Source: Candidatus Parcubacteria bacterium (GTDB lineage: Bacteria > Patescibacteriota > Patescibacteriia > Patescibacteriales > UBA12075). From it: 64,000 nt of DNA. Where the stretch lies: assembly GCA_002869165.1 (NCBI GenBank), contig PKTK01000002.1, positions 1,235 to 65,234 on the forward strand, given 5' to 3'. Position numbers and translations under genes: made by a program. Under the pieces are notes generated by a model. That model made no database searches. It had not been told where the DNA came from and saw nothing but the letters and a program-made list of their open reading frames with translations. Shown here in pieces: positions 11,080 through 63,898 of this stretch (positions are counted from its first letter, which is position 1; each line of letters opens with the position of its first letter).

Positions 11080-11083
11080 TAAT

Positions 11084-18446: not shown

Positions 18447-18457
18447 TTCTCTCCTCC

Positions 18458-18691: not shown

Positions 18692-18712
18692 TTCCAAAAT
18701 TTTTCTCCCTAT

Positions 18713-18883
18713 TTATTTTTTTCTTTTTTCATAGCTAAGCATGCCGCATTCATTACTGCATTTTTTATATATCTCTATATTTCCCTTACTTTCTTCTATT
18801 GTTTCAATAATATATCCTTGGCCACATTTTTTACAAACTCCCATTTTTTTTCTTAGATCACAAAACTCGTATGTTTCAGACAT
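18713..18883 (-). CDS. small zinc-ribbon protein (56 aa)
   Basis: My own translation: MSETYEFCDLRKKMGVCKKCGQGYIIETIEESKGNIEIYKKCSNECGMLSYEKRKK, with two CxxC-like pairs. SD is AGAGGAGAGATAA-ATG. Confidence 0.55.
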   Translation of the reverse strand: MSETYEFCDLRKKMGVCKKCGQGYIIETIEESKGNIEIYKKCSNECGMLSYEKRKK

Positions 18884-19126
18884 TTATCTCTCCTCTCTTT
18901 TCAATGAACAGAATAAAAAACCACTCTTTACACAAGAGCAGTCATCTTTTAATAAATTTGAATAAAACTAATCAAAAGAAGCCTGCTCTTTTAAGAGAAG
19001 CAGGTTGACCAGTAACAAAATTGAACTGAAAAACTTTTGACTATTCATATATAAATTTATTAAATGTTTGATAACCGGAAATTTATTAAAATAAATTTCC
19101 GGTCTTTTGTTTACGGAGAGTTTTAG

Positions 19127-19321
19127 CTAGTCTTGCGGACCGCCTAATTGAAAAGAAAAAAATTTCTTTTCTGCTTTTTTTATTTCAAGAAGCTTAGCCG
19201 CTAATCTCCTTTTCTCGAGTGGACAGGTTGCCTCATTCATTCTGGCAAGCAAACATTCACCATTCTTCACAATTCTGTCAAAACTCTCTACCTTTTCCCA
19301 AGTTCCAGCGCCTCCAACCAT
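19127..19321 (-). CDS. small hypothetical protein (64 aa)
   Basis: Start at MVGGAGTWEKV..., preceded by AAGGGGGAAAGT. A terminator-like hairpin follows at about 18975-19010. Confidence 0.5.
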   Translation of the reverse strand: MVGGAGTWEKVESFDRIVKNGECLLARMNEATCPLEKRRLAAKLLEIKKAEKKFFSFQLGGPQD

Positions 19322-19331
19322 ACTTTCCCCC

Positions 19332-19529
19332 TTAAAAAATGTTTGATTTTGCGATTGCTTTTTCAATACCTTTTTTTGTTGTCTTCAATCCGTATTTATA
19401 TTTTTTATAACCTTCAACGTCGCCAGATGCAATTGCCTTTTTAAGCTTAAACTCCAAGGCATTTTGTTGAATTGCTAAATGCCCCAAAACTCCATCACTT
19501 TCCCTACACAAATGACTACCTAATTCCAT
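19332..19529 (-). CDS. small hypothetical protein (65 aa)
   Basis: The ORF ends 10 nt before the next small gene. No recognisable family. Confidence 0.45.
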   Translation of the reverse strand: MELGSHLCRESDGVLGHLAIQQNALEFKLKKAIASGDVEGYKKYKYGLKTTKKGIEKAIAKSNIF

Positions 19530-31322: not shown

Positions 31323-31415
31323 TTTGCTAATATTAAATTAATTATTATGATTTTCGGCTGTATCTTTCTGAGTATTTTCTTCAGTTTGCGACTTAGTGAT
31401 ATTTTCAGGATTTGA

Positions 31416-33134
31416 TTATTCTTTCTTTGTTAAAGCATCACCAAAAATCTCTTTTTTTTGCTCTTCATGTTTTTTCAAATCTTCGTCAACTTTTCTTACC
31501 TCTGTGCCAAGTTGTTCTTGCATTTGATTGAGTATTTCTCCTGGACTTGGTGCATTTCTACTTTCTTCTTCTGCCTTCTTTCTGGCTTCTTCTTCTCTTT
31601 GTTTTTCTTGCTCTTGTTTAACTTTTTTTTGCATGGCTTGATTTACACTCACTACTCCAAAACCAAGTATCAAAATAAGTTCTAATTCTTCAGTAAAGGC
31701 TTTGGCGGTTTTTGAATTAAGTCCTACTCCGCTTTGATTAAAAGATGTATCCAGATAGTCATTAAAGGCCCGCTTGTCCATAGTATTCATAAGTCTTTGT
31801 TTTATTGCATGAAATATTCTTTCGTGTTGTTTTTCGTTGAGCTTTTTATAATGCTCATCGTAACAAACTCGATACAAATATGATTGTACTTTATCAGCCT
31901 TTTCATCAAAAGTCACTTTTGGATGCTTGCCATTCTCGTCCTTTCTCTGTCTAGCTTTTTGATATACAAAATAGGCCATTTTTACTACGTCATTTATTCG
32001 ATCTACAACATTCTGGGCAGTTCTCCTATCCATACCCACTCCCCCAAATTTTGCTGGTCTATCTAATACTTCATAGAATTCTCTCTCAGAAATAGAGCCT
32101 AGCAACCTGCGTTGCAAAATATCTTCAAATATTTTAACCTCATCCATGCTCAGATTAGAGGAAAAATGATTTACAAAAACCTTAGCCTTGTATGGCATGA
32201 TCAAAATATTGATCTGCTCTGGACTCATACCCTGATATGCTCTCATTAATTCGTTTATTTGATTAGCAGCTGACTTTGGTTTTAGTATCTTTTTTTTATG
32301 ATGTTTATCATGATTAACAACTTCTCTGGTTATTATTCCATCCTTCATATAGAGAATACGATCAGCCACGTCCAAATATTCAGGATTATGTGTCACTAAA
32401 ATAACTGTCTTTTTCTCTTTCTCATTCAATTCACCCAATATCTTGAGTACCATTTTTGCAGAAACTGAATCCAAATTACCGACAGGTTCATCAGCCAAAA
32501 CTATCTGCGGATTATTTACTATTGCCCTAGCAATACCGATGCGTTGCTGTTGACCACCGGATAGCTCGGTTGGTATCTTGTAAGCATGTTCCAAAATCCC
32601 AAAACGCTCAAGTAAATTCTTGGCCCATCTATTTCTACGACCTCGAGAAACATTAACAAACATTTGCGGTAAGGCCACATTATCAAGCACAGATAAGGAA
32701 GTAATTAAATTATAGGCCTGATAAATCATGCCGATTTCATTTCGGTGATAAATAGCAAAGTCCTTACCACTCAATCTGGTTAGATCATGTCCCAAAACAG
32801 AAATGGTTCCTGAGTCTGGTGTTTCCAAACCAGCGATCACATTTAGGAGAGTAGATTTACCACAACCAGAAGGTCCAAAAACGATAATAAATTCATCTGG
32901 ATATATATCCAGACTAATATCTATCAAAGCGTGAAACTCATTATCCTTTCCTCGATTGTAAATAAAGTCAAGATTTTGTGCTCTAATTATTGGTTCATCA
33001 CCTGTATTCTTCGAATTAGTCCCAGCTTTTTCGATTGCTTCAGGATTATGCGGTGCGCTAATATCAATAGGCTCAGCCACTTGAGTAGCTGTTTCCGAGC
33101 TTCCACTGTTTTGTTCCAAATTTTCTTCTGGCAT
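31416..33134 (-). CDS. ABC transporter ATP-binding protein with a ~300-aa C-terminal extension
   Basis: Walker A GPSGCGKST, signature LSGGQQQR, Walker B LADEPVGNLD, then a long helical charged tail. Confidence 0.88.
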   Translation of the reverse strand: MPEENLEQNSGSSETATQVAEPIDISAPHNPEAIEKAGTNSKNTGDEPIIRAQNLDFIYNRGKDNEFHALIDISLDIYPDEFIIVFGPSGCGKSTLLNVIAGLETPDSGTISVLGHDLTRLSGKDFAIYHRNEIGMIYQAYNLITSLSVLDNVALPQMFVNVSRGRRNRWAKNLLERFGILEHAYKIPTELSGGQQQRIGIARAIVNNPQIVLADEPVGNLDSVSAKMVLKILGELNEKEKKTVILVTHNPEYLDVADRILYMKDGIITREVVNHDKHHKKKILKPKSAANQINELMRAYQGMSPEQINILIMPYKAKVFVNHFSSNLSMDEVKIFEDILQRRLLGSISEREFYEVLDRPAKFGGVGMDRRTAQNVVDRINDVVKMAYFVYQKARQRKDENGKHPKVTFDEKADKVQSYLYRVCYDEHYKKLNEKQHERIFHAIKQRLMNTMDKRAFNDYLDTSFNQSGVGLNSKTAKAFTEELELILILGFGVVSVNQAMQKKVKQEQEKQREEEARKKAEEESRNAPSPGEILNQMQEQLGTEVRKVDEDLKKHEEQKKEIFGDALTKKE

Positions 33135-37872: not shown

Positions 37873-38607
37873 CTATTTTTTAATTTCTTTTTTTGGAGCT
37901 ACCTTCTTGGCAACTTTTTTCTCTTCTTCCTTAACTTCCTTTTTGTCTACTACTTTCTTGGTATTTTTTGGTTTCTTTACTTCTACTTTCTTTAATAAAT
38001 CAAGAGCTTCCATCAAACATTTAGCAATAGTAACTTTGTTGTTTGTGCCCAAATTCTTACTAGTAACATTGTTAAGGCCAACTAATTCAAGCATAGTTCT
38101 TATAGCACCACCAGCAATAACACCTTTACCAAGTCTTGCCGGTTTTAGTAATACCTTGCCAGCACCATATTTATGATAAATCTCATGTGGAATAGTCCCA
38201 TTTACAATTGAGATCTCAATCATAGCCTTTTTAGCATTATTAACAGCTTTATTTACAGCTACTGCTACATCCGCACCTTTGGCCATACCTAGGCCAATCT
38301 TTCCTTTTTTGTCACCAATAGCGACAGTAGCACGAAAACGCATACGTTTTCCACCAGCCATAACCCTGGTAACTCTTGCTATATCAATAACTCTTTGTTC
38401 GTATTCATCTCTTCTTTCTTGAGTTCTTCTTTGATTTTTCTTTTTCGCTGCACCCTTTTCTTGTCTTTTTCTAGCATACACTGACTCACCGATAGCTTTT
38501 TTAGTCTTATCAGTTTTTGCCTCAGCTTTAACTGGAGCTGCACTTTTGTCAGTTTTTGCTTCAGCTTTTTTAGCTTCAATCTTGTTTTTTTCTTCTGCCT
38601 TTGCCAT
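37873..38607 (-). CDS. rpsE: 30S ribosomal protein S5 with Lys/Ala/Glu-rich N- and C-terminal extensions
   Basis: Core VTRVMAGGKRMRFRATVAIGDKKGKIGLGMAKG; 244 aa. Confidence 0.93.
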   Translation of the reverse strand: MAKAEEKNKIEAKKAEAKTDKSAAPVKAEAKTDKTKKAIGESVYARKRQEKGAAKKKNQRRTQERRDEYEQRVIDIARVTRVMAGGKRMRFRATVAIGDKKGKIGLGMAKGADVAVAVNKAVNNAKKAMIEISIVNGTIPHEIYHKYGAGKVLLKPARLGKGVIAGGAIRTMLELVGLNNVTSKNLGTNNKVTIAKCLMEALDLLKKVEVKKPKNTKKVVDKKEVKEEEKKVAKKVAPKKEIKK

Positions 38608-38625
38608 AAAAAATATTTAAAAATT

Positions 38626-38982
38626 TTAGAATTTAAGTCCACCTTCACGAGCGCCCTCTGCTACAGCTTTAACTCGTCCGTGATAAATATATGAACCTCT
38701 GTCAAAAATTACTTCGCTCACTTTTTTAGCTTGAGCTTTTTTTGCTATTTCCTTTCCTACCTCTGTAGCAATCTCAGTTTTATTAGCTTTTTTATTTTTA
38801 ATATCTCTAGAATGTACACTAGCTAATGTTTCGCCTTTTTCATCATTTATCAATTGAACATAAATAGAAGTGTTAGTTCTACACACATTCAATCTTGGTC
38901 TTTTAGCTGTACCAAAAATCTGAGATCTTGTTCGATTCTTTCTTCTTAGTTTTCTTCTGTTTTTAGCTATTATTTTATTCAT
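38626..38982 (-). CDS. rplR: 50S ribosomal protein L18
   Basis: RPRLNVCRTNTSIYVQLIND...FDRGSYIYHGRVKA. Confidence 0.93.
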   Translation of the reverse strand: MNKIIAKNRRKLRRKNRTRSQIFGTAKRPRLNVCRTNTSIYVQLINDEKGETLASVHSRDIKNKKANKTEIATEVGKEIAKKAQAKKVSEVIFDRGSYIYHGRVKAVAEGAREGGLKF

Positions 38983-39000
38983 ATATTATAATTTATTTTA

Positions 39001-39546
39001 CTATTCACCTTTTCCAGCAGTCTTACCTTCTTTTCTTTGAATGATTTCATCAATATATTTAATACCTTTTCCTTTGTAAGGCTCTGGTTTTCTTAATTTT
39101 CTAATTCTAGCAGCTGTTTCACCAACTAATTGTTTGTCGAAACCTGAAATAGTAATAATATTTCCTTCTACTGCTGCTGTAATTCCCTCAGGAAGTTCAA
39201 ATTCAACTGGATGAGAAAAACCTAAATTAAGATTCAATTTCTTTCCGCTAGCTGCAACTCTATAACCAACTCCATTTACTTCAAGTTTTTTTTCATAACC
39301 CTCTGTAACACCAGTAATCATGTTGTTTACTAATGATCTATAAAGACCCCAAAATGATCTCTCTTTTTTATTGTCTGGTTTAGCCACACTCACAGAAACC
39401 TCTTTTTCTGTTACTTCAACTTTTACCAAATCGCTTAACTTTTGTTTTAGTTCGCCTTTTGGTCCTTTTACAGTAATAAAAGTCTTGTCGATTTTTACAT
39501 CAACTCCTGCTGGTATTTCAATTGGTAATTTTCCTAAACGTGACAT
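39001..39546 (-). CDS. rplF: 50S ribosomal protein L6
   Basis: MSRLGKLPIEIPAGV...VKGPKGEL. Confidence 0.93.
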   Translation of the reverse strand: MSRLGKLPIEIPAGVDVKIDKTFITVKGPKGELKQKLSDLVKVEVTEKEVSVSVAKPDNKKERSFWGLYRSLVNNMITGVTEGYEKKLEVNGVGYRVAASGKKLNLNLGFSHPVEFELPEGITAAVEGNIITISGFDKQLVGETAARIRKLRKPEPYKGKGIKYIDEIIQRKEGKTAGKGE

Positions 39547-39647
39547 TTTATTTTAGTGGGAAACTTGGAATTCTTGAGATCCTTGGGATTCTTGAAAAAC
39601 TGTCTCAAAATTCCTAAGATCTCAACACTCTTAAGCATCCTAATTAT
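39547..39647. repeat. operon-spacer hairpin element, family C (CTTGGGAT / CTTAAG words)
   Basis: ttgagatccttgggattcttgaaa faces tctcaaaattcctaagatctcaa. Homologous to 42256-42363. Confidence 0.65.
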
Positions 39648-40061
39648 TTAATATACTTCACAAAGAACTTCCCCTCCCAAGCCTTTCTTTCTGGCTTCTT
39701 TATTGGTCATTAAACCTTGTGGAGTTGAAATAACTGCGATTCCCAAATTATTCAAAACTTTTGGAAGATTTTCCTTATTTACGTAAATACGTAAACCTGG
39801 TTTAGAAATTCTTCTTATTCTAGTAATAGCAGACTTTCCGCTTTTTTTGTATTTTAGGGTAATCTTTAATTCTTTGAAACTTGTTTTTGACTTACCTCTA
39901 GGTGCTGATTCTTCTACGCTCACCTCTTGAACCCAGCCTTCCTTAGCTAAAATTTTTGCAAGTTCATGCTTAACTTTGCTCATAGGTAAAACAACATCAA
40001 ACTTATTAACAGCTGAAGCGTTTCTTATTCTTGTTAGCATGTCTGCGATTGGATCAGTCAT
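39648..40061 (-). CDS. rpsH: 30S ribosomal protein S8
   Basis: MTDPIADMLTRIRNA. Confidence 0.95.
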   Translation of the reverse strand: MTDPIADMLTRIRNASAVNKFDVVLPMSKVKHELAKILAKEGWVQEVSVEESAPRGKSKTSFKELKITLKYKKSGKSAITRIRRISKPGLRIYVNKENLPKVLNNLGIAVISTPQGLMTNKEARKKGLGGEVLCEVY

Positions 40062-40185
40062 AATATTATTATTTAATCATAGTGCAAATCTACAAACGAA
40101 ATGCAAATCTACAAATTTATACTATCTACATTTAAAAATTATTTTCATGTGCCCCATTTATGGCGGAGCTCCGCAAAGCGGATAA
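40062..40185. repeat. operon-spacer element related to family B
   Basis: After the upstream stop (minus strand): CCGC-tttg-CGG mini-hairpin, CCGCCATAAATGGGGC, then repeated GTAGATTTGCA words. Confidence 0.55.
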
Positions 40186-40371
40186 CTACCAGCTAGATCT
40201 AGTTACTCCTGGCAAATCACCATTTTCCGCAAGTTCTCTAAAACAAATACGGCACAGGTCAAAATCTCTCATATATCCATGATTTCTGCCACATCTCCAA
40301 CATCTTCTTACTATTCTAGTTGAATATTTTGGTTTTCTTTTCGCTTTTGCGATTAATGCTTTTCTAGCCAT
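40186..40371 (-). CDS. rpsN: 30S ribosomal protein S14, zinc-binding short type
   Basis: 61 aa, CWRCGR...CRIC. Confidence 0.93.
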
Positions 40372-40382
40372 GTATTTAAAAA

Positions 40383-40934
40383 TTATTTTTTATCTTCTTC
40401 TTTCTTAAATGGAAATCCCATTAGATCAAACAGTTCTTTTCCTTCTTCTTTGGTTTTTGCACTAGTTACTATAGTAACTTCTAGGCCAAAAACATTATCA
40501 ATTTCATCAGCTTGAATTTCAGGAAAAGCAGTATGCTCCTTGAATCCAATATTTAAATTACCACATTTATCAATATTCTTTGCATCAATTCCTCTAAAAT
40601 CTCTAACTCTTGGGAATGTTACATTAACCAATCTTTCCAAAAAGTCATACATCCTTTCTCTTCTAAGTATCACTGAAGCTCCAACTACCATTCCTTCTCT
40701 GATTTTAAAAGCTGAAATTGATTTTTTAGCTTTAGTTAAAACTGGTTTTTGACCTGAAATTCTAGTTAAAGCATTTACCACATTCTCAATATAAGCTTTT
40801 TCCTTACTGTGTCTACCCATCCCTACATTAATTACTACTTTTTCAACTTTAGGTATTTCAAGAACATTAGAGTAAGCGAACTTCTCTTTTAGTTTCTTGG
40901 TTATTTCTTTTTTGTATAAATCTTTTAATTTCAT
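40383..40934 (-). CDS. rplE: 50S ribosomal protein L5
   Basis: LKDLYKKEI...NVGMG...FPEI. Confidence 0.93.
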
Positions 40935-41043
40935 AATTGTTTTATAATCCTAATACTACAAATGATATCCGAATACTACAAATCTATTTTCTTAAACATT
41001 CGGATATGCCCCGTTTGTAGTTGGGGCTCGCTGAAGGCGATAA
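40935..41043. repeat. operon-spacer element, family B (ATATCCGAAT ... ATTCGGATAT)
   Basis: About 80 percent identical by eye to 43915-44024. Minus strand: mini-hairpin TCGC-cttca-GCGA, GCCCCAACTACAAACGGGGC, then a 10-bp inverted repeat ATATCCGAAT/ATTCGGATAT. Confidence 0.75.
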
Positions 41044-41364
41044 CTAATCTACTACTTGATCACATTTCTTACAAACTCTGAATTTTTTCTTACCTTTAGA
41101 TCCTTCGTTTGTTTGGTGACCTATTCTAGTTGGTTTTGAACATTTAGGACAAACCAACATCACATTTGAAATATTCATTGCAGCCGGGAATTCAATTCTT
41201 TGCCCTTTTTCACCTTGTCTTCTTGGTCTCATGTGCTTAATAGACAAATTCAAACCTTCCACGCTAACACGGTTTCTATCTGTGAAAATTTGCAAAACCT
41301 TGCCTGTTTTTCCTTGGTCTTTACCAGCTAAAATTATTACTTTGTCACCTTTCTTAATATTCAT
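41044..41364 (-). CDS. rplX: 50S ribosomal protein L24 (with C-terminal zinc-ribbon-like CPKC...CKKC)
   Basis: IKKGDKVIILAGKDQGKTGKV KOW motif. Confidence 0.92.
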   Translation of the reverse strand: MNIKKGDKVIILAGKDQGKTGKVLQIFTDRNRVSVEGLNLSIKHMRPRRQGEKGQRIEFPAAMNISNVMLVCPKCSKPTRIGHQTNEGSKGKKKFRVCKKCDQVVD

Positions 41365-50312: not shown

Positions 50313-50864
50313 TTAATCTTCAACTTCTTCCAAATAATACCTGTCCTCTTCTATTATCTCTTCAGCGTTCTTTTTTCTATCACCTGGAATTGCCCAGTTC
50401 TTTTTCTTCTTATTTTTTTTAATAAATTGTTCTTTTTCTCTTGCTATAGTTGAAAAACTGTGCCAATCATTATCTTCTTCATCTCCCTCCTCCTCTTCAT
50501 CATCGAATAATTCTTCTAATTCAATATCATCATACTCCTTAGACATATATGGATCATCTAAATCACCATAATAATCATCATCTGACAAATTTTTAACTTC
50601 ATTTTCTGCTATTATTTTATCTAAGCTTAGCTGATTTTCATCTATTTCTTGGTCACTTTTCCAAATTGCAATATCGCGATTTATTTTATCAGCCAACTCC
50701 TCTTCTGTCAAGCCTCTCACCGGAGACCTTCCCACCACTATCTTCTCATATTCATCTACACTCATAACAACAAATGGATCATTTTGTCCACTTTGATCAA
50801 AAGCTATAATTCTATCACCTGTCTTCCTTGATAAATCTATTAATTTTTGCAATTTATTATCCAT
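50313..50864 (-). CDS. hypothetical acidic protein inserted between fusA and tuf
   Basis: 183 aa with a D/E-rich centre. The N-terminal PFVVMSVDEYEKI faintly resembles Phd/YefM-type antitoxin N-termini (weak). Confidence 0.5.
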   Translation of the reverse strand: MDNKLQKLIDLSRKTGDRIIAFDQSGQNDPFVVMSVDEYEKIVVGRSPVRGLTEEELADKINRDIAIWKSDQEIDENQLSLDKIIAENEVKNLSDDDYYGDLDDPYMSKEYDDIELEELFDDEEEEGDEEDNDWHSFSTIAREKEQFIKKNKKKKNWAIPGDRKKNAEEIIEEDRYYLEEVED

Positions 50865-50899
50865 GTGTGTGATTTATTTATTATATAGTGAATATTGGC

Positions 50900-51015: not shown

Positions 51016-53091
51016 TTATTTCTTCTCTGCAGTAATTTTTTCAGCAATATTTTTTGGTACTTCTGAATAATGTAAAAATTCCATAGTATAATTTGCTCTA
51101 CCTTGAGACATACTTCGTAGCTGTGTAGCGTAACCAAACATTTCAGATAATGGAACACTGGCATTTACCACCTTTGCATTTGCTCTATCTTCCATTTGTC
51201 CAATTTGACCACGTTTCGAATTCAAGTCTCCAACAATACTTCCCATATATTCTTCAGGGGTAACAACTTCAACTTTCATGATTGGTTCAAGTAGAACTGC
51301 ATTTGCTTTTCTACAAGCTTCTTTAAAACCAAAGATTGCTGCCATTTTAAAAGCTGATTCAGAAGAGTCAACTTCATGATATGAACCATCATATACTGCA
51401 ACTTTAACATCTACCATAGGAAAACCAGCAATAACACCAGAATCCATAGCCTCTTTAATACCTTTTTCTATCGCTGGAACATAATCAGCTGGAACAACAC
51501 CACCTTTGATCTCGTTTAAAAATTCAAAGCCAGCACCTTCTTCTTGTGGTTAAACTCTAAGCCAACAATGACCGTATTGTCCCCTGCCCCCTGATTGCTT
51601 GATGTATTTACCTTCTGCTTCAGCTGTTTGTCTGATTGTTTCTCTGTATGATACTTGAGGCTGACCGATATTAGCTTCTACCTTAAACTCTCTTTTCATA
51701 CGATCAATAATAACATCCAAATGAAGTTCTCCCATACCTGAAATCAAAGTTTGATTTGTTTCCTCATCAGTTTCTACTCTAAATGTTGGGTCTTCTTCAG
51801 CAAGTTTTTGCAAAGCAAGTCCCATTTTTTCTTGGTCTGCTTTTGTTTTAGGTTCAACCGCAATCTTAATAACAGGCTCTGGAAAAGTAATTGACTCCAT
51901 CAAAAGCTTTCTTGATTCATCACAAAGAGTATTACCAGTCACTGTTCCTTTTAGACCAATTACAGCAGCAATATCACCTGCATACACTTCACTAACTTCC
52001 TCTCTGTGATTGGCATGCATTCTTACAAGTCTTCCAATTCTTTCTTTGTTTCCACTTGAAGTGTTGTATACATATGAACCAGATTTTAATACTCCAGAAT
52101 AAACTCTCACAAAACAAAGTTTACCAACAAATGGATCAGTGGCAATCTTAAAAGCAAGTCCAGCAAAAGCTTCATTATCACTTGCTTTAACTGGGATCTC
52201 TTTTGTCTCATCATTTATATCCAAACCAACTAGCTCTTTTACGTCTAGTGGAGATGGAAGATAGGCAATCACAGCATCAAGCGCATGTTGTACGCCGATA
52301 TTCTTAAGAGCAGATCCTGCCATAACTGGAAAAAGTTGAGTTGCTAATACTCCCTTTCTGATAGCTCCTTTTAATTCTTCTACAGTAATTTCCTGTCCAT
52401 CAAGATATTTTTCGGTCAAAGCATCGTCAACTTCTACCACTCTTTCAATCATTTCATTTCTTAATTCTTCACATTTTGCTTTAATGTCTTCAGGAATGTC
52501 AATTTCTACTATTTGCTCACCATGCATTCCTTCAAATTTGTAAGCCTTCATAAGAATAAGATCAACAATACCACTTAGGTTGTCTTCAGCGCCAATTGGA
52601 AATTGGATAGCTACAGCGTTTGGATTCAATCTATCTCTGATTGATTTAAGTGACATATCAAAATCACCACCTAGCTTATCCATCTTATTTACAAAACAAA
52701 GTCTAGGAACATTATATTTATCAGCTTGTCTCCAAACTGTTTCAGACTGAGGTTCAACACCAGCAGCACCATCAAATACTGCTACCGCACCATCAAGCAC
52801 ACGTAAAGAACGCTCTACTTCTACAGTAAAGTCAACGTGACCTGGAGTATCAATAATATTTAAACGATGATCTTTCCAAAAGGCTGTAGTAGCAGCTGAA
52901 GTGATAGTAATACCTCTTTCTTTTTCCTGCTCCATCCAATCCATATCAGACTCACCATCATGAGTTTCTCCAATTTTATGTTTTTTACCAGTGTAAAAAA
53001 GTACCCGTTCAGTAAATGTGGTCTTCCCCGCATCAATGTGAGCCATGATACCTATATTTCTGGTTTTTTCAAGTGAATATTCTCTAGACAT
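51016..53091 (-). pseudogene. fusA: elongation factor G interrupted by a single in-frame TAA (51550-51552); otherwise full length and colinear
   Basis: [18 protein letters not shown], ...[46 protein letters not shown]... Both track ORFs (51550..53091 and 51016..51447) are in the same frame (105-nt offset). The 'pseudogene' call is only the literal code-11 reading. Confidence 0.85.
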
Positions 53092-53194: not shown

Positions 53195-53716
53195 TTATTC
53201 GTTTTCTTCTTCGAATTTTACAAATCTTTCAATTAAGTCGGTGCCTTCTTCGTCAGTTACTGCTACATAGCCCTCTTTGGTACTACTAAATTCGAAGTAT
53301 AGGGTTACAGAATATTTATTATCTCTTACCTTAACTTCTTCTCCCACTAAAGGAGTTTTGTCGCTCTTTCTTAATTCAACAAACACACTTTCCTTTTCTT
53401 GATCAACTGTTCCTTCTATTTTAAGTGGACTACTAACAACACTATCTTCTTCAATGTTAATAGTTAATGACTTGTTTACTGTTTCGCTGTTTTCTCCATC
53501 AATGATCTTATCAATGACTTCTTGATCTTGTTTTGTCTGCAAATTAATATCTTCAATCGCCTGCTTTGCTCCTTCATAATCTTCAGTTAACTCAACTGGA
53601 GTTTTTTTTGAAAAAAAAGAGCCACCATAGACAAGGAATGCTATTAGTAATACTACTACTAATAACCCTATCAGTGCGGCATAACCTTTTTTGTTATCTA
53701 AAAGTGTAAACATCAT
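53195..53716 (-). CDS. membrane-anchored hypothetical protein inserted between rpsG and fusA
   Basis: N-terminal TM helix (AALIGLLVVVLLIAFLVYGG), then a beta-rich ectodomain. Confidence 0.55.
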   Translation of the reverse strand: MMFTLLDNKKGYAALIGLLVVVLLIAFLVYGGSFFSKKTPVELTEDYEGAKQAIEDINLQTKQDQEVIDKIIDGENSETVNKSLTINIEEDSVVSSPLKIEGTVDQEKESVFVELRKSDKTPLVGEEVKVRDNKYSVTLYFEFSSTKEGYVAVTDEEGTDLIERFVKFEEENE

Positions 53717-53791
53717 ATTAGCTTTTAGGTATTAGCTTTTAGCTTTTAGGGCTTTCCTACAAGCTAGAAGCTAAAAGCTAGTAGCTAGGAT
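53717..53791. repeat. operon-spacer inverted word repeat (TAGCTTTTAG words)
   Basis: tagcttttaggtattagcttttagcttttagg faces ctacaagctagaagctaaaagctagtagcta. Confidence 0.55.
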
Positions 53792-54259: not shown

Positions 54260-54431
54260 AATGTTTTCTTCAACTTAGCCGGAGCATTCTTAACGCAATC
54301 ACCTGACACTAAGCTTACTCATTATTTTTCTTAAACTTTTTAATTTCTAATTTTATAATTTTCTATGTTTACAAATTTATTTATTTGTGTAATTTAAAAT
54401 TGTTTACAAATTATAAATTACTACTTATAAA

Positions 54432-54860
54432 TTAATTTGCTGTTGCTTTTTCTTTCTTTGCTCCATACATACTTCTAGAATTCTTTCTGTCAGCCACGCC
54501 TTGAGTGTCATAAACACCTCTTACTACTTTATATCTTACACCTGGAAGATCAGCTGTTCTACCTGCTTTAAGCATCACAATAGAGTGTTCTTGTAAATTA
54601 TGCCCTACACCTGGGATATAAGCGGTTACTTCCATTCCATTTGAAAGTCTAACTCTTGCAATTTTTCGAAGAGCTGAGTTAGGTTTCTTTGGAGTAGTTG
54701 TAGTCACCTTCAAACAAACCCCTCTTTTAAAAGGTGCTCCTTTTCTTAGTGTTGTTCTTTTTCTGTGTAAGGTATCTAGGGTAGTTTGCAATGCAGCGTA
54801 TTTAACTTTCTTTTTCTTGGAAACGCGCCCTTTTCTTACCAATTGGTTAATAGTATGCAT
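54432..54860 (-). CDS. rpsL: 30S ribosomal protein S12
   Basis: [10 protein letters not shown]...[10 protein letters not shown]...GHNLQEHS. Confidence 0.96.
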
Positions 54861-54950
54861 AATTATTTTAGTATTATATTTCAGTTTAAAAAATACTGAA
54901 TTAAATTTATTAATAAAACAAACCCGTTAAAACCGGGTAAATGCTTTTTT

Positions 54951-54979
54951 AATTTAGCAAAATACAAGAAATAAGTCAA
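54951..54979 (-). promoter_or_regulatory. candidate sigma70-like promoter of the ribosomal super-operon
   Basis: Minus strand reads TTGACT, a 17-nt spacer, then TAAATT, about 90 nt upstream of rpsL. Confidence 0.4.
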
Positions 54980-54995
54980 GAGCCATAACAAATTT

Positions 54996-55028
54996 TTAAT
55001 TTATAATTTATAATTTATAATTTATAAA
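54996..55028. repeat. short tandem heptamer repeat (TTATAAT x3-4)
   Basis: Read directly: ttataat ttataat ttataat ttataaa. Confidence 0.6.
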
Positions 55029-55123
55029 ATAAAAAATAATATTTTATCCTAAAATTAGCTATTTTTAGACAAAACACACCTAATCAACTTTAAAAATATT
55101 TATTTTAGTATTAAACTAAAAAT

Positions 55124-55321
55124 ATGCGTTTTATAATTCTTACAATTTTACTTTTTCTTTTCCTGGGAACGAACTTTCTTTCACTGATCTTTAATACTTC
55201 GGTTAGCGCTACTGAATTTAAACCAAGCGATTTTAAGAATGAATTAAGTGACTTTTCTATATCAATTGGCGAAAACCGAGAAGATGGACGATATATAAAA
55301 TTTAAATACGAGTATAAATAA
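55124..55321 (+). CDS. small secreted hypothetical protein
   Basis: 65 aa with a signal-peptide-like N-terminus (MRFIILTILLFLFLGTNFLSLIFNTSVSA). A terminator hairpin follows directly. Confidence 0.5.
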   Translation: MRFIILTILLFLFLGTNFLSLIFNTSVSATEFKPSDFKNELSDFSISIGENREDGRYIKFKYEYK

Positions 55322-55361
55322 AAACAGAGCCTAGCCCTGTTTTTATTTTTATATAAAAATC

Positions 55362-55973
55362 TTAAGTAATTCCTGTTATTAACGAAAATAAAATATAAAT
55401 TATTGGTAGTATCAATCTAAATCCTACTGCAATAAAGATAAATACCAAAAACATGCCGTATTGTTCAAATATTAGTAATTTTTCCTGAATACTTATTGGT
55501 AAAAATGGCATAATGACCTTTGAGCCATCAAGTGGTGGAATTGGTACCAAATTAAATACCATTAGCAATAAATTAACAAAAACAATTATTTGCATCATGT
55601 AGACCATGTCTGTATTCGCAAAAGGAACGAATCTAATCAGTAACCCAATAATTATAGCAACAGCTAAATTAGCCATAGGACCAGCCACAGCCACCTTAGC
55701 ACCTCCATACTTTTTATCACGTAAATTATACGGATTAAAAGGAACTGGTTTTGCCCAGCCAAACACAAAAGGAGCGCCTGTAGTAATTAAAATGAAAGGT
55801 AATAAAATAGAACCAATTGGATAAATATGCGGAATTGGATTTAAAGTCAATCTACCTAAGTCTTTTGCGGTAGTATCGCCCAACCTATCAGCCATCCAGC
55901 CATGCATATATTCATGAATGATCGCTGAAAAGATCAATACAATTACCTGAAATATTGCTATATTCATTGTCAT
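55362..55973 (-). CDS. site-2 protease family (M50) zinc metalloprotease
   Basis: HEYMHG (HExxH) in a TM helix and a later PIPPLDGS motif. Confidence 0.8.
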   Translation of the reverse strand: MTMNIAIFQVIVLIFSAIIHEYMHGWMADRLGDTTAKDLGRLTLNPIPHIYPIGSILLPFILITTGAPFVFGWAKPVPFNPYNLRDKKYGGAKVAVAGPMANLAVAIIIGLLIRFVPFANTDMVYMMQIIVFVNLLLMVFNLVPIPPLDGSKVIMPFLPISIQEKLLIFEQYGMFLVFIFIAVGFRLILPIIYILFSLITGIT

Positions 55974-56111
55974 AATTTTATCTTTTCTTCCTAGTCTTGC
56001 ATTTATTACGCAAACATGTTATGGTTAATTTCGAAATAAATATATTATCTAAATAGGTGCAAAAGGTCATCTTTTTATTTTTTTTATAAAACCTAAGCAC
56101 TAAAAAATATT

Positions 56112-56288
56112 ATGTATAAACAATGTGAAATTTGCGGAAGAAGTTCTACTAAAGGTGCAGCCAGGTCTCATTCTAACGTAAGAACAAATAAACGTCAAAA
56201 TATCAACTTGCAAAGCAAAACCGTAAAAGGTGGCAAAATGCAAGTATGTACAAAGTGTTTAAAAACTGCAAAAAAACTTGCTAACTAA
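56112..56288 (+). CDS. rpmB: 50S ribosomal protein L28
   Basis: My own translation: MYKQCEICGRSSTKGAARSHSNVRTNKRQNINLQSKTVKGGKMQVCTKCLKTAKKLAN (58 aa). Below the ORF-track cut-off. Two terminator hairpins follow (56290-56322, 56333-56364). Confidence 0.85.
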   Translation: MYKQCEICGRSSTKGAARSHSNVRTNKRQNINLQSKTVKGGKMQVCTKCLKTAKKLAN

Positions 56289-56470
56289 AATCCCCTTTCA
56301 AGTTGCAAGGGGACCAGTTTTAAAATCTATCAAATATTCCTTTCTAAAAAGGAATATTTTTTATTTACAAACTCATTAACAAAAAAATAAGTAGAATCAA
56401 AAGCACGCTTAAAATTATCAAGATCTTTAAGAATGTTAAACCTGGTTTTTCAGGATTAATAAACATAAAC

Positions 56471-56857
56471 TTAAACCATCCCTAGTTTCTTTTTAACTAA
56501 TGCAACCACATCTTCAAGTCTCCAATCGGTTTTTACCAAAAAATCAAACACGCCATAGCTAGCAACTTCAGAAACAGAATCAGGGTCACTTAAATTAGTT
56601 AACATAATTATTGGCACTTCTTTGCCCCAGGTGCTACTTTCTCTAATTTTTTTAGTTGCACTAATACCATCTAATTTTGGCATTAAAATATCAAACATCA
56701 AAATATCTGGTTTTTCTTTCAAAGCGATTTTCAAACCTTCTTCACCGTCAGGAGCGTTAAATGTCTCAAAATCACTCTTTTTAAATTTTTCAACCAAGGC
56801 TTCACGCATGGCTGTTTCATCCTCTACAATTAAAATTGTTTTTTTGCCTTCTGACAT
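56471..56857 (-). CDS. stand-alone response-regulator receiver protein
   Basis: TILIVEDE, DILMFDILMPKLDG, PIIMLTN. Confidence 0.85.
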   Translation of the reverse strand: MSEGKKTILIVEDETAMREALVEKFKKSDFETFNAPDGEEGLKIALKEKPDILMFDILMPKLDGISATKKIRESSTWGKEVPIIMLTNLSDPDSVSEVASYGVFDFLVKTDWRLEDVVALVKKKLGMV

Positions 56858-56920
56858 ATTATTTATAATTAAGATATTTTATTATTATAGTAAATGTAAT
56901 CAAAATATCCCTGTTTATTT

Positions 56921-58066
56921 TTATTCTATACTATTTAGTTTTTTTGTGCCAATCTTTCTTTTCATACCTTGCAAAGGAATTGTTATAAAGAAAGTTGTAC
57001 CTTGATTTTGCTTATCTATTGGAACATTAGACTGTTTCTTGGGATCAAGTAAAAGATCAAAGCTGGGTGACTGAAACCATATCCTACCTCCACTTTTTTC
57101 AATAATCGCTTTTGTAATATAAAGACCCAATCCTGTACCAACTGACTCCATTCTCTTTACATTATCTGCTCTAAACATCTTAGTAAAGACATTTGGTTGT
57201 TGTTCTCTTGGTATGCCACAACCATTATCTGATATCTTTATCAATACATCTTTTTCTGTTTTTCTAAGCACTATCTGAACTGTACCACCTTCAGGGGTGT
57301 ACTTGACAGAATTGGAAATAAGATTCTCAAAAAACATTTTGGTTAAGCGCCTATCAAGATTGATCAGTGGAATATCATCATAAAGTCTTTCAATGTGTAG
57401 CTTCTTTTCTTTGATTTCTTCAGTAAATTTTTCCAGAGCTTTATCAGCTCTTTCAGTGATATCAGTTGGCTCAGGTTCAATCGAAAAGGTACCAACATCT
57501 ATTCTTGATACATCCAACAAAGCATTCACCAGATCAATCAATCTTTCGTTACTTTCATAAGCTTCGGTTAAATATTTATGTTGCTCCTCGTTCATTTCAC
57601 CAGCGTCTCCTGCCAAAACAAAATCAATATACCATTTTATGATTGATAACGGTGTCCTCAACTGATGACTAGCCAAAGCAACAAAATCCGTTTTTGCTTG
57701 GGACAGTTCTTTGTGTTTGGATACGTCTTGAGCAATTCCGGTATTTAGACGTGACATAAGTTCATTAACAGCGTGTGCTAGTTGACCAATTTCATCTTTA
57801 GTGCCAGTTTTTAGATTTTCTGAAAAATTACCAGCTGCCATCTCTTCTATCTTAAATACGACATTTGCAAGTCTTTTGGAGAACCACCTACTTATTGTAT
57901 AAGCAAAAATAAAAGCAACTGTTAAAAGTATATAAGCAAGAATAAACAAATATGCCCAATCTATCTCTGTTAAAAACTTTACTAAAAAAATTACTATCAA
58001 AGTAAAAATAAAAAAGACCACCAATATCTTATCAGACAAATTTATACTCCTTGTTTTTATTTTCAT
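56921..58066 (-). CDS. HAMP-domain sensor histidine kinase
   Basis: Two TM segments, HAMP, H-box SHQLRTPLS, DNGCGI, GTGLGL. Confidence 0.88.
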   Translation of the reverse strand: MKIKTRSINLSDKILVVFFIFTLIVIFLVKFLTEIDWAYLFILAYILLTVAFIFAYTISRWFSKRLANVVFKIEEMAAGNFSENLKTGTKDEIGQLAHAVNELMSRLNTGIAQDVSKHKELSQAKTDFVALASHQLRTPLSIIKWYIDFVLAGDAGEMNEEQHKYLTEAYESNERLIDLVNALLDVSRIDVGTFSIEPEPTDITERADKALEKFTEEIKEKKLHIERLYDDIPLINLDRRLTKMFFENLISNSVKYTPEGGTVQIVLRKTEKDVLIKISDNGCGIPREQQPNVFTKMFRADNVKRMESVGTGLGLYITKAIIEKSGGRIWFQSPSFDLLLDPKKQSNVPIDKQNQGTTFFITIPLQGMKRKIGTKKLNSIE

Positions 58067-58344
58067 TTATTAAATATAGCTAATTTTAGGAAAATTTAAC
58101 CTAAAAATTACAAAAAACTTTGGTTTTTTGCCAAGCCATATGTTTATTAATAATATACACTTATTTTACAATAATTTACAATTTTTGTAAAACTTTAGTT
58201 ATCAACAAATAAAAAAAAAAATACATTGACAAATTTAAATAAATATGATATAATTTTAAGTTAAAATTAAAGACTTGAGTTATTTGTATTACTAGTATAT
58301 AATCTCTATTATTAGCAAAAACAAATAACATAACTAAAAAAACA

Positions 58345-60135
58345 ATGAAAAACATTTTTAAAAATCTATTAAAAAACAAAACTTCTAGAAATATCATACT
58401 GCTAGTTTTGATTGTCGGTCTGGTTTTTTCAGGAGTTTCTTTGGCTGTTAAAAATAATGAAAGCCAGGAAGAAAACAAGGAATTTATCAAAACTGTATCT
58501 ACTCAGATTATTAATGGCGATGAAGCGAATAAGAGCCAAATAGAAACTGTTGGTGTAGTTGAAGCCCAATCTAGTATTGATGTAATTTCCACCATTTCAG
58601 GAACTCTTAAAGGTTTGTACTTTAATGTAGGGGATGAAGTTTATCAAAACCAATCTCTTGCTCAATTATACAGTTCAACTGCATTAACAAGTTTAAACAA
58701 TGCTCAAACAAACTTAAATAATATTCAGAGTTCACTTACTACCACTCAAAGAATAACTGACGAATCTATCAGGCAAACAGAGATTGGTGTAGAACAAGCA
58801 AATATTGGCCTAGAAAATGCCAAAAAATCTATCCAAGTTGCTGAACTAGGTCTTAAAACAGCTCAGGATAATTTAAACAATGCTATAAAAATAAAGGAAA
58901 AGTCTTTAAAAGATCAAAAAAATAAAGCTGTAATAAACTTTAATGCATATGTTAATACTATATTTAGTGCCCGTGACCAAGTAGCACTACTTATCAATGC
59001 GAACACCTCTGAATTATTGAGTTCTAATCTTTGAGCAAAAAATCCCGAAACTATTTCTGAAACTAAATCAGCTTATGCTTTAGTTAATAAAAAATATAGC
59101 GAACTAAAAAATATCTCTCCTAGCCTGGAAACAATTGAAAGCAATTTACAAGATAGTGTAGATGGACTTAGTTTAAGTGAAAACATGCTAAACAAAGCTA
59201 TTAATCTTTTAGATAACACTGTAAGTGGTGGATCTTATTATGAATCTACACTTGCTAGTCAAAAAAGTTCTTTTACTCTACTTCGTGCCAATGTAATTAC
59301 GGCATTAAACGGAGCCAAAACAGAACTTGAGGCCTTATCAACTGTTGATCTAGCAAATTCTACAGATATCACAGCCTTAAACAATGCTGTAAGTGCTGCA
59401 GAAGCTCAATTATAAATTGCTATTACAGCCAAAGATAATGCAGAAATTGCTGTTAAAAACGCTAAACAAGCGGTTGAAAGCGCTAAAGTTGCTCAAAGCC
59501 AACAACTCTTAAGCGTAGAAACTCAGGTTGATAGTGCAAGAGGTCAATACAATCTAAGTAGCGCTCAAACTGCTGACTTGAATATCAAGGCTCCAATTAA
59601 AGGTACTATCACTGAAAAATACGTTGAATTAGGTACTGAGGTAAGTATTGGTCAAAAAATTGCACAAATTTCTCAATTAAACAACATGAAAATTGTTGTT
59701 AATGTTTCCAGCGAGGATATTTACAGAATTCAACTAGGCCAAACTGTGATGATTGAAAATAACCTTGAAGGGATTATTTCTTCTATAAATCCTTCCGCTG
59801 ATCCCGTTACCAAAAAAGTAAAGGCTGAAATTATTTTTAATAACGAAAATAAAGAATTGATTCAAGGAACATTTGTAAATGTTTCAATTCCAGTTGAAAA
59901 AATAGAAAAAAGTAAAAGCGACTCAGTTTTCATTCCCTTGCGAGCTGTAACAATTACTGCAAACGAAAAATATGTTTATGTTAATGAGAATGGCTTTGCC
60001 AAAAAAATACTTGTAGAATTTGGGAAAACAGAAAACGCTTTAGTTGAGATCACCAGTGGTCTTACAAGTGGTGATGAATTGATAACTGACGGAGGCAAGC
60101 TACTTGAAGATGGAGATGAGATTATAATTAAATAA
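58345..60135 (+). pseudogene. RND/ABC efflux periplasmic adaptor (HlyD/MFP family) with in-frame TGA (59032-59034) and TAA (59413-59415)
   Basis: The three track ORFs (58345, 59185, 59578) share one frame. N-terminal TM anchor, long coiled-coil hairpin, and C-terminal barrel (IKAPIKGTITEKYVELG ... DGDEIIIK). The sequence stays coiled-coil-like across both stops. Confidence 0.8.
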
Positions 60136-60240
60136 GATTCTAGAGACCCTTGATATCTTTGGGATATTTGAGAATCTGCTTACTTACAGATCTTAATTTC
60201 CCAAAAAACAAGACTCATAATAATCGTACTCAAATATTAT
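60136..60240. repeat. spacer element with family C-like vocabulary between the adaptor and RND genes
   Basis: agagacccttgatatctttgggatatttgagaatc ... cagatcttaatttccc. Confidence 0.4.
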
Positions 60241-63200
60241 ATGAAAACTACTAACCACCCGGGAGATAAAAAACCGGATATACTTTCAAAGGAAGAATAC
60301 TAAAAAAATCTAAACGAAAAATTAGACAAAGGACTAAAGAAGACAGAAAAATCTGTGATTGGTTTTTTTATCCGAAATTTTCGTTTTACATATCTATTAC
60401 TCCTAACCATGATTTTTCTTGGGACATATTCTCTTATGACTCTTCCTAAAGAGTCTGAACCAGAGATCGAAGTTCCTTTTGGTGTGGTGACTACAATATA
60501 TCCAGGAGCAAATCCTACTGATGTTGAAGAACTTATTACCAATAAGATAGAAAAGGAAATAAATAATCTAGACAACTTAAAGATATATACTTCTAGCTCA
60601 GGGGCTGGTTTTTCCTCTATCTTTGTAGAATTTGAAGCTGAAGCTGACTTGCAAGAATCTTTTAGAAAACTAAGAGAAGCTGTTGATAGAGCTGAGCCAG
60701 AACTACCTAGTGATGTTGAAAATCCACAAGTATCTGAAATTAATTTCAATGACTTTCCAATTGTAACCTATTCTTTGGTTGGCGACTATACAGATGTGGA
60801 ATTAAAAGATTACGCGAATATTATCAAAGATGAGCTCGAAACAATATCTGATGTTTCAGAAGTTGATATTTTAGGTGCTCTTGAACAAGAATTTCAAATT
60901 ATTGTAAATGAGAAAAAACTTAATTCATACAAGCTAAATTTATCAAGTCTAAGCCAAGCTATCAGTTCTGCAAATTTTTCCTTACCAGCTGGAGATATTG
61001 ATGTTGATGGCTTTACTTATGGCATTAGAGTAAAAGGGCGTTTTACAAGTATCGAAGATCTTGAATCAATTGTAGTGACATCTCTTGATGGAACTCCTAT
61101 TCTTCTGTCTGATGTAGCACAAATCAGTGATTCATTCAAAGAAAGGAATACAATTTCAAAAATTGGTTTTTCTGATACACCATCAAAAAATACAATTTCT
61201 TTACAAATCAGAAAAAAAACTGGTGGAAATATCTTGAAGATCGTTGACAATGCCAATCAAAAGATTGATGAAATCCAAAATAGTAATTTAATTCCAACTG
61301 ATCTAGAAATCCTAAAAACCAACGATAATTCAATTTTTATCAAAGATGATATTAAAACTCTCGGTACTAGTGGTATTCAAACTGTTATTCTTATTACCTT
61401 GATTCTTCTTATGGTGCTTAGTTTGCAAGGTGCTATCATCACAGCTCTAGCTGTACCATTTGCTTTTCTAACTGCATTTATCTTTTTAAATCTACAAGGC
61501 ATGACCTTAAACTCAATGGTGCTTTTTTCACTAGTACTATCTCTTGGTCTTATGGTTGATAATGCAATTGTAATTATTGAGGGTGTTAATGAATATATAT
61601 CCAAGCACAAAAAGAATTCCTATGAAGCTGCTATGCTTTCAGTGTGGAATTTTAAGTGGGCAATCACCGCTGGAACCTTAACTACAGTATCTGCATTTTT
61701 ACCCATGCTTCTTGTTTCAGGAATCATGGGCCAGTACATTGCTACCCTACCTAAAACTATTACCGTTACTTTACTCTCTAGTTTATTTGTAGCGTTAGTT
61801 ATCATTCCTACTTTAGTAACTAGATTTTTGAAAGTAAAAGTAAATGGAAATGCTAAACATAGAGATAAAAAAAGACATCTATTTATAGAAAATAAAATTT
61901 CAAAGCTACATATTAAATATGAAGCAATACTAAGAAATATTTTGCCATATAAGAAAAAAAGGAGAAGAATCATTGCTATATCATGGATTGTTTTTTTCTT
62001 GGCTGTATCTGTTCCAATAAGTGGTCTTATGAAAATTGAAATGTTTGGTGACATGGACCTTGATTATTTCTATGTAAATATCGAAACTCCTGTAGGGACT
62101 AGTCTAGAAGCTACTGAAAGGATAGTGGCTAGCACAGAAGAAATTGTTAGAAATATTCCCGAACTTGATAACTATGTGTTGAATGTTGGGGCATCTGCTG
62201 CTTCTGGTTTTGCTGGAGATACTGGTGCTACCGCTACTCACCTAGCAGGCGTTACCGTAAATCTAGTTGACCCTAGTGAAAGAGATAGAAAAAGTTATGA
62301 AATTGCGGATTCTCTTCGTGATCAGTTTGCTTCTATTCAAGGAGCTAAATTTTCAGTAACAGAGCTTACTGCTGGACCTCCAACTGGAGATCCAATTGAA
62401 GTTAGAATATCCGGAGATGATTCTAGTACCATTGCAGACATTACCGCTCAAGTTCTTGACTGGATGAATAATAAAGAAGGTGTAATAAATGCGGAAGACA
62501 ATCTAGAAAATTCAGCTGGAGAATTTACTTTTGAAATAAATAAACAAAAAGCCAACTACTACGGGTTAAATACTTTATCAATCGCCTCAGCTCTACGAAG
62601 CGCTAAATATGGAGCTTCGGCTGGAACTGTAAATGTTAATGGTGAAGATGTTGATATTACAGTAAAATACGATGATTCAGAATTCCAAACTATCAACGAC
62701 CTGAATGAAATATTACTTACAACCGCCACTGGAGAAAGTATTCCTTTAAAAGAAGTTGCCTCGGTTACATTAGAACCTGCTCTACTTTCCATTAGCCATA
62801 GAGATGGTGATGAAACAGCCATTGTAAGCGCCGACACTGAAGCTGGCGCAAATTTACAAGACATCTTAGCTGATTTTGATGAATACCAAAGTAAAATAGA
62901 CCTACCAGAAGGTTATTCTATTTCTGTTGGTGGAGAAGTTGAGGACATACAACAATCATTTACATAAATATTCTTATCAATGATTTTATCTGTTGTATTG
63001 ATTGCAGTTATCTTGGTCTTACAGTTTAACTCATTCAAACAACCATTCCTAATTCTATTTACTGTACCGCTTTCGTTTGTCGGTGTAATATTTGGTTTAA
63101 ATTTACTACTTATGCCGTTTTCATTCCTAGCCTTTATTGGTATAGTTTCTTTATCAGGAATTGTAGTAAATGACTCAATCGTATTAGTTGACAGAATAAA

Positions 63201-63456
63201 TAAAAATATCGATAATGGTATGGAATTTATTGACGCAATTGTTGAAGGTGGCATCTCTCGTATGCAACCGATATTCCTAACATCTCTAACAACCATTGCT
63301 GGTATATTTCCATTGATATACGCTAATGAATTTTGGAGAGGTTTTTCTATAACTGTAACCTTTGGTCTAATATTTTCAACATTTCTAATGTTATTTATGA
63401 TTCCAATATATTATGTTAGTATGTGTAGAAAGGACAAGTGCCAAACATTAAAATAA
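60241..63456 (+). pseudogene. RND (AcrB/HAE-type) efflux permease with in-frame TAA at 62965-62967 and possibly at 60301-60303
   Basis: ORFs 60355..62967 and 62980..63456 are in one frame. The protein is colinear across the stop (...[49 protein letters not shown]). The ATG at 60241 is in frame with GTG 60355, so the 5' end is uncertain. Confidence 0.8.
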
Positions 63457-63799: not shown

Positions 63800-63852
63800 A
63801 ACTAAACCCGCTAGTTTTCCAATCAGAATCCTAGCGGGTTCTTTTTATTTTA

Positions 63853-63898
63853 AAAATGGGTATTAATAGGGTATTAATACCCTATTAATACCCATTTT
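63853..63898. repeat. perfect 46-bp palindrome (GGGTATTAATA x2 and its complement)
   Basis: aaaatgggtattaatagggtattaataccctattaatacccatttt equals its own reverse complement. Confidence 0.85.

Follow-up and report, generated by a model that had tools for sequence, protein, structure and literature searches.

In-frame stop codons in an efflux gene pair of a Candidatus Parcubacteria contig as probable oxidative-damage-type base errors in one deposited assembly

The efflux gene pair and its in-frame stops

The window, the whole stretch of DNA analysed here, comprises 64,000 nt of a contig (65,380 bp; proteins PLX27482-PLX27547) from a GenBank MAG of Candidatus Parcubacteria bacterium, a member of the CPR. 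It carries on its forward strand two adjoining genes, one for a membrane-fusion (adaptor, MFP) protein (58345..60135; Pfam HlyD_D23 and HlyD_3) and one for an RND (AcrB-type) transporter (60241..63456; Pfam ACR_tran). When the in-frame stops in these genes are masked, the HlyD domains of the adaptor are found (HlyD_D23, 8e-18) and ACR_tran covers the RND protein from end to end (residues 40-1060, 648 bits, 4e-194). A full-length AcrB/ACR_tran domain encoded beside an HlyD-type adaptor gene identifies the two as an RND efflux pump pair, and the pair is syntenic at 12 or more orthologous CPR loci.

Two stops interrupt the window copy of the adaptor gene, a TGA at 59032..59034 (G230*) and a TAA at 59413..59415 (S357*), and two further TAA codons lie in the RND gene, at 60301..60303 (E21*) and 62965..62967 (E909*), all of them on the forward strand. 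A first-pass annotation had reported these four stops from the sequence, with a single reading frame kept throughout each gene, and both observations hold. The GenBank annotation presents the resulting fragments as separate hypothetical proteins (PLX27543, PLX27544, PLX27546 and PLX27547). Alignment to orthologues, which had been proposed as a check, places the TGA at an adaptor position that is mostly Gly and E909* at a Glu found in 12/12 RND orthologues; E21* falls in a poorly conserved N-terminal tail. The orthologues used for residue conservation in both proteins came from scans of metagenomes and GTDB genomes with the RND protein, in which the best segments were 51-69% identical, one additional match was weak (27%), and no near-identical genome was found; these matches place the organism near Falkowbacteria/Parcubacteria.

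Stops elsewhere in the window

Two genes on the reverse strand are affected as well. In the essential gene fusA (EF-G, 691 aa; 51016..53091), which sits in the str operon, a TAA at 51550-51552 (E514*) truncates what is otherwise a canonical EF-G, alignable over its full length: stop aside, residues 1-689 align with S. aureus EF-G 2xex at 979 bits. In an ABC ATPase gene (31338..33134; 598 aa elsewhere) a TAA at 31416-31418 (S573*) leaves the truncated product deposited as PLX27511. The earlier count of four to five nonsense codons, fusA included, was thus correct for the codons that it listed and short in its total, which is six, S573* having been missed.

Other assemblies of the same organism

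Three further public assemblies of the same organism, from ENA, Logan and JGI, span the window at >99.8% identity. The ENA contig (ERZ794999, coverage 24) and the Logan contigs (SRR5894289) are identical to one another over 27 kb. The JGI contig (Ga0102541_1248654) has the same length as the GenBank contig, 65,380 bp, and its positions 1235-65234 are collinear with the window with zero indels over all 64,000 bases, which bears out the initial observation that frameshifts are absent.

At the six stops of the window, in the order in which they are described above, ENA and Logan have GGA, TCA, GAA, GAA, GAA and TCA, so that sense codons stand at 6/6 sites, and in these assemblies the four stop-bearing genes are whole, at 596, 1071, 691 and 598 aa respectively. 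The adaptor gene is unbroken in the JGI contig also, and the TAA at RND position 909 is shared with that contig. The stop-creating changes in the window include G>T at 59032 and at 60301 and C>A at 59414. The first-pass annotation had taken each stop that it knew to derive from GGA or GAA by a G-to-T change; this is correct for four of those five and fails at 59413, where the other assemblies have TCA and the change is of the same class on the other strand.

Substitution spectrum and distribution

Derived differences of the window were polarised against the ENA/Logan consensus. There are 51 in 64 kb, of which 25 are G>T, 22 C>A and 4 of other kinds, and the placement of 47/51 in the single class G:C>T:A is far beyond chance. 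A similar spectrum is seen among the 16 changes private to the JGI contig (14/16 G>T or C>A), and none of 67 variants is present in ENA ERZ794999 or Logan SRR5894289. The GenBank and JGI versions of the contig differ at 63 sites. Four derived sites of the window recur in the JGI contig, one recurs in ERZ794998, and at sites 33372 and 55823 all four allele combinations occur among the assemblies (a four-gamete conflict), which is expected of a mosaic consensus and not of a clonal lineage. The density of changes, ~0.8/kb, is even over the window (variance-to-mean ratio 0.59 in 4-kb bins), and this uniformity rules out a clustering of changes around the efflux genes. Missense changes also occur in EF-Tu, S10, S12, L14, SecY, TyrRS, UvrB and UvrC.

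Sequence context, strand and coding effect

The changed G is followed on its 3' side by a purine at 55/61 sites in the full window (46/52 in the first analysis, p=5e-6), and the highest change rates are found in CGA and CGG. The oxoG artefact, in which 8-oxoguanine that forms while DNA is extracted or sheared causes C>A/G>T errors, has CCG>CAG as its hallmark context (Costello et al., 2013; PMC3616734). The context of the changes in the window matches that of this published artefact and of guanine oxidation, which favours the 5' G of GG or GA.

The changed G lies on the forward strand at 34/61 sites, compared with ~22-23 expected after correction for context (p ~0.002-0.003), an asymmetry of ~2.1-fold. 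A pure library artefact should show strand symmetry, and symmetry is not observed here. Purifying selection was considered as the source of the asymmetry and rejected, since even total loss of non-synonymous hits would yield at most 1.66-fold.

Against a neutral expectation for the window that takes strand and context into account, 5.8 synonymous, 28.6 missense, 7.5 nonsense and 5.1 intergenic changes were expected and 7, 29, 6 and 5 were observed (p=0.90). The effects of the changes fit unselected hits, and purifying selection is likewise rejected as the source of the mild synonymous excess. No depletion of missense changes is detectable in ribosomal proteins or EF-Tu.

Origin of the stops

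One possibility raised in the first-pass annotation was that the stops are tolerated by read-through; with this or with recoding (UGA as Gly, as in code 25, or UAA by a suppressor) the genes would be translated whole. The constancy of frame within each gene and the unbroken protein character across the stops are consistent with such a process, as is the position of the TGA in place of a Gly codon, the meaning of UGA in the code 25 of Gracilibacteria and Absconditabacteria, which like the present host belong to the CPR. In the organism's other assemblies, however, these sites code for Gly, Ser and Glu, which leaves no stop to be read through. UAA would have to bear two meanings, Glu and Ser, while TAA terminates nearly all genes in the window, and we know of no bacterial code in which TAA has a sense meaning. 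The TGA is the only one in frame in 64 kb, and with GGA standing at its site elsewhere both code 4 and code 25 were rejected. The window contains no tRNA genes, and no suppressor tRNAs or structured RNAs were found within its 64 kb. Moreover, one G>T process accounts for 29 missense and 7 synonymous changes besides the stops, which are a random subset of its products, and translation of the genes through their stops is highly improbable. Hardly any credence can be given, either, to ordinary pseudogene decay of the efflux operon, which would account for several stops in two adjoining non-essential genes. Decay of this kind would leave indels and substitutions of all types, confined to dispensable genes, whereas the 64 kb are without indels, one substitution class dominates, and the hits fall at equal density on fusA, on the gene for the ABC ATPase and on housekeeping loci, among them tuf, secY and those for ribosomal proteins; the efflux genes are themselves unbroken in the sister assemblies.

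Real mutation merits more consideration. Mutators lacking mutY or mutM produce a G:C>T:A spectrum, and the changes could be in vivo mutations or unrepaired lesions of a sub-population deficient in the GO system (mutM, mutY, mutT), in which case the efflux genes would be true, recently formed pseudogenes. The predominance of G:C>T:A transversions is that of a mutY/mutM mutator, the derived sites shared with the JGI contig and with ERZ794998 are in keeping with this reading, and the twofold strand asymmetry is beyond the reach of selection and of a kind that replication- or transcription-linked processes can generate. A mutator lineage should nevertheless be represented by a single heritable, viable haplotype from which lethal changes have been purged. 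The nonsense changes instead occur at the neutral rate, fusA E514* among them, missense changes in ribosomal proteins and EF-Tu show no detectable depletion, and the conflict between sites 33372 and 55823 is at odds with descent in one lineage. The variants are moreover missing from the population's other assemblies, that of ENA at 24x and that of Logan, and the JGI version of the contig, equal in length, has a largely different variant set. We consider a repair-deficient lineage unlikely. It is a doubtful proposition, too, that a CPR (Parcubacteria) population without effective 8-oxoG repair bears a real load of G>T lesions or mutations, doubled where the G belongs to the C-rich strand (on which most genes have their template, and which is probably the leading-strand template), and that the MAG has captured this load as a mosaic of variants; if true, this would provide a direct view of oxidative mutational asymmetry in an uncultured bacterium with a reduced genome.

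The reading that we prefer, to which we assign a probability of about 0.82, is that the stops are consensus-level G>T (C>A) errors of oxidative-damage type in one deposited assembly and do not belong to the genes of the organism. The oxidative-damage signature, the other possibility put forward in the first-pass annotation, thereby gains strong support from the sense codons of the sister assemblies, the 47/51 changes in one class, the guanine-oxidation context and the unselected effect classes. Substitution class, context, sister codons and fit to unselected hits are established; the chemistry of the lesion and its route into the consensus we infer. Guanine would be oxidised to 8-oxoG, which would pair with A during amplification or sequencing and give rise to G>T or C>A errors that land irrespective of their effect on coding, at ~0.8/kb. 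In an AT-rich genome, damage that prefers a G before A or G would frequently strike GAA, GGA and TCA codons (the last through TGA on the opposite strand), and therefore about one change in six would create a stop. The errors may have reached the consensus through a low-complexity library or an amplified low-input one, or at a consensus or polishing step applied to damaged reads.

Likeness to the published oxoG artefact extends to the almost exclusive G:C>T:A class, the 5' C and 3' purine around the changed G, the absence of the changes from other datasets and the lack of any sign of selection. In the published cases, by contrast, the allele fraction in reads is below ~20% (PMC3616734), whereas the changes in the window are fixed in the deposited consensus; in the window a 3' A is also favoured as much as a 3' G, and the strands are unequal. 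Further points weigh against errors of this origin. A 65-kb contig implies, by our estimate, coverage of roughly 10x or more, at which random damage present at low fraction should lose the consensus except in an amplified or low-complexity library. Because derived sites are shared with the JGI contig and with ERZ794998, either the assemblies have reads in common or the DNA pool itself contains the variants.

Consequences for use of the assembly

This is a data-quality result and adds no new biology of efflux pumps or of translation. On the preferred reading, a public MAG contig would carry ~0.8 G>T errors/kb, amounting in the 64 kb to about 30 spurious missense changes and to six false nonsense codons, which give the look of 'pseudogenes' and one of which lies in fusA. 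Users of the genome would be misled on gene loss, alternative genetic codes, dN/dS and metabolic reduction in the CPR. A cheap and general check is to compare sister assemblies and then to ask which substitutions occur, in which sequence context, and whether their effect classes depart from neutral expectation.

A literature search found no mention of the accession numbers. Five proteins of the window have no exact-protein database match because each contains a window-specific change. Both uvrB and uvrC are present in the ~70 kb of the genome seen.

In-frame stops and their sense counterparts

The MFP adaptor gene (58345-60135, + strand) and the adjoining RND gene (60241-63456, +) are each read in a single frame through two stops, as the first-pass annotation had described. 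With the stops masked, the RND protein matches Pfam ACR_tran over residues 40-1060 (648 bits) and the adaptor contains HlyD barrel-sandwich domains; RND orthologues, 51-69% identical in their best segments and with an adaptor gene adjoining, are found in MAGs of Falkowbacteria, Parcubacteria and other Patescibacteria. Searching the window for stops that interrupt a long open frame likewise recovered the fusA stop at 51550-51552 (-), at residue 514 of an EF-G alignable with that of S. aureus (2xex) over residues 1-689 (979 bits). By exact-sequence matching, the window's proteins, fragments included, are GenBank PLX27482-PLX27547 (locus tag C0583_) from a 65,380-bp contig of the MAG 'Candidatus Parcubacteria bacterium', and the fragments of the broken genes were deposited as separate hypothetical proteins (PLX27543, PLX27544, PLX27546 and PLX27547).

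Intact neighbour genes traced this organism in four further public assemblies: JGI IMG 3300007102 (contig Ga0102541_1248654, 65,380 bp), ENA ERZ794999 (NODE_58, 151 kb, coverage 24), the Logan contigs of SRR5894289, and low-coverage contigs of ERZ794998. The ERZ794999 and Logan sequences show no differences in 27 kb of overlap and were therefore both taken as the reference state; they carry none of the variants, and their gene calls give an adaptor of 596 aa, an RND protein of 1071 aa and an EF-G of 691 aa. Compared with these sister assemblies, the window has six stops: G230* (59032, GGA>TGA) and S357* (59414, TCA>TAA, codon from 59413) in the adaptor and E21* (60301, GAA>TAA) and E909* (62965, GAA>TAA, likewise in the JGI contig) in the RND protein, all on the + strand, together with E514* in EF-G (51552, GAA>TAA, -) and S573* in an ABC ATPase (31417, TCA>TAA, codon 31416-31418, gene 31338-33134, -). 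The last removes the final 26 residues, and its 572-aa product is annotated in GenBank (PLX27511); it had been missed earlier, while every stop then listed is present. The ancestral codons proposed at that time, GGA and GAA, hold for every stop but the one at 59413, which derives from TCA. The reference codons agree with conservation, since RND position 909 is Glu in 12/12 orthologues and MFP position 230 is predominantly Gly.

The ERZ794998 contigs, aligned to window 38438-41361 and 54273-60521, differ by transitions within the ribosomal protein operon and appear to stem from a second, slightly different strain; one of them ends in a stretch of mismatches.

Spectrum, context and coding effects

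Positions 1235-65234 of the JGI contig are collinear with the window with 0 indels, in keeping with the absence of frameshifts noted from the sequence, and 63 sites differ between these equal-length versions, almost all G/T or C/A. Taken with the lack of any of the variants in two other assemblies, this suggests that it is the reads or libraries that vary, and not the organisms. Across the 64 kb, 51 changes are derived in the window (25 G>T, 22 C>A, 4 other), all six stops among them, and 16 are private to JGI (9 G>T, 5 C>A, 2 other); four derived sites (2539, 33372, 62350 and 62965) are common to both. The four window-specific differences outside the G>T and C>A class, 12077 T>C, 13461 C>T, 37568 T>G (L15 T61P) and 44124 A>T, may represent genuine SNPs or errors of another sort.

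The changes are evenly distributed (variance-to-mean ratio 0.59 in 4-kb bins). One-electron oxidation is known to strike preferentially the 5' guanine of a GG or GA step, a preference that the changes share. A purine lies 3' of the changed G in 46/52 cases in the first analysis, well above expectation (p=5e-6), and in 55/61 across the whole window, with the highest per-site rates at CGA and CGG. This matches the published context of the 8-oxoguanine (oxoG) library-preparation artefact, whose hallmark CCG>CAG is C-G-G on the G strand, a context attributed to the oxidation potential of guanine within it (PMC3616734).

Every possible G>T/C>A change in the reconstructed reference sequence was scored for coding effect, and 10.7% (unweighted) are nonsense. 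Weighted by observed 3' context and strand, neutrality predicts that the 47 such window changes comprise 5.8 synonymous and 28.6 missense changes, with 7.5 nonsense and 5.1 intergenic; 7, 29, 6 and 5 were observed (fit p=0.90). The number of stops is thus that of unselected changes in an AT-rich genome rich in GAA, GGA and TCA codons. The missense changes include EF-Tu P54H, S12 P2H, S10 G48C, L14 Q18K, SecY L275I, TyrRS G309C, UvrB G518V and UvrC D203Y. A haplotype with the str-operon EF-G cut at 514 would presumably be non-viable, although a second fusA copy may lie outside the 64 kb.

Origin of the stops

The best explanation is that the stops are consensus-level oxidative-damage errors in this deposit, with the JGI version touched by errors of this class to a lesser extent; of the two explanations offered by the first-pass annotation, the G-to-T signature as from oxidative damage is upheld by the 47 of 51 window-derived changes that are G>T or C>A and by the oxoG-like context preference. 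Tolerated read-through or recoding, the other, is excluded by the sense codons in other assemblies of the same organism, and UAA would need to mean both Glu and Ser. Ordinary pseudogene decay is likewise excluded, as indels are absent, one substitution class prevails and the uniformly spread changes reach essential genes. Errors of this kind could have entered a 65-kb consensus if the library was of low complexity or amplified from low input, or if damaged reads went into a polishing step. The alleles at 33372 (derived state shared by window and JGI) pair among the assemblies with those at 55823 (shared by window and ERZ794998) in every one of the four possible ways, as is expected of a mosaic consensus and not of a clonal tree.

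Strand tells in the other direction. Of the 61 events, 34 have their changed G on the C-rich + strand, where an expectation corrected for dinucleotides or trinucleotides gives about 22-23 (p about 0.002-0.003). A simple library artefact does not account for this excess, since a pure artefact should be symmetric. Selection was rejected as its source: loss of all non-synonymous changes would give at most a ~1.66-fold asymmetry, and most observed changes are non-synonymous. The asymmetry leaves perhaps one chance in ten for real strand-biased lesions or mutations in vivo. The shared derived sites likewise do not fit: they mean that the assemblies are not independent, and reflect either common reads or variants present in the DNA pool.

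On the oxidative-damage reading, the stops are genuine in the deposited sequence yet no real biological feature, and they hold nothing new for biology; their value is modest, as a quality warning on the deposit and a recipe for spotting such a pattern.

Other features of the window

The window is ~32% GC; its genes are almost all encoded by the minus strand, and TAA is the stop codon of nearly every one; tRNA genes and Rfam matches were absent from the 64 kb. Two hypothetical genes (183 aa and 173 aa) lacking Pfam matches, at 50313-50873 (-) between S7 and fusA and at 53195-53731 (-) between fusA and tuf, interrupt an otherwise canonical S12-S7-EF-G-EF-Tu-S10 cluster, which is unusual there. 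Five small genes in a row (18249-19529, -; 56-77 aa), flanked by ndk and an M20/M28 peptidase gene, have no Pfam matches and no mutual similarity by BLASTP. At 9667-13653 (-), a radical-SAM/SPASM gene shares 4 bases with a GT28-type glycosyltransferase gene, followed by a methyltransferase-like gene, and the three may form a small modification cluster. A near-perfect palindrome (gggtattaatagggtattaataccctattaataccc, 63850-63898), just downstream of a terminator-like hairpin, lies near the common end of the JGI, NCBI and ENA contigs and probably causes the assembly break.
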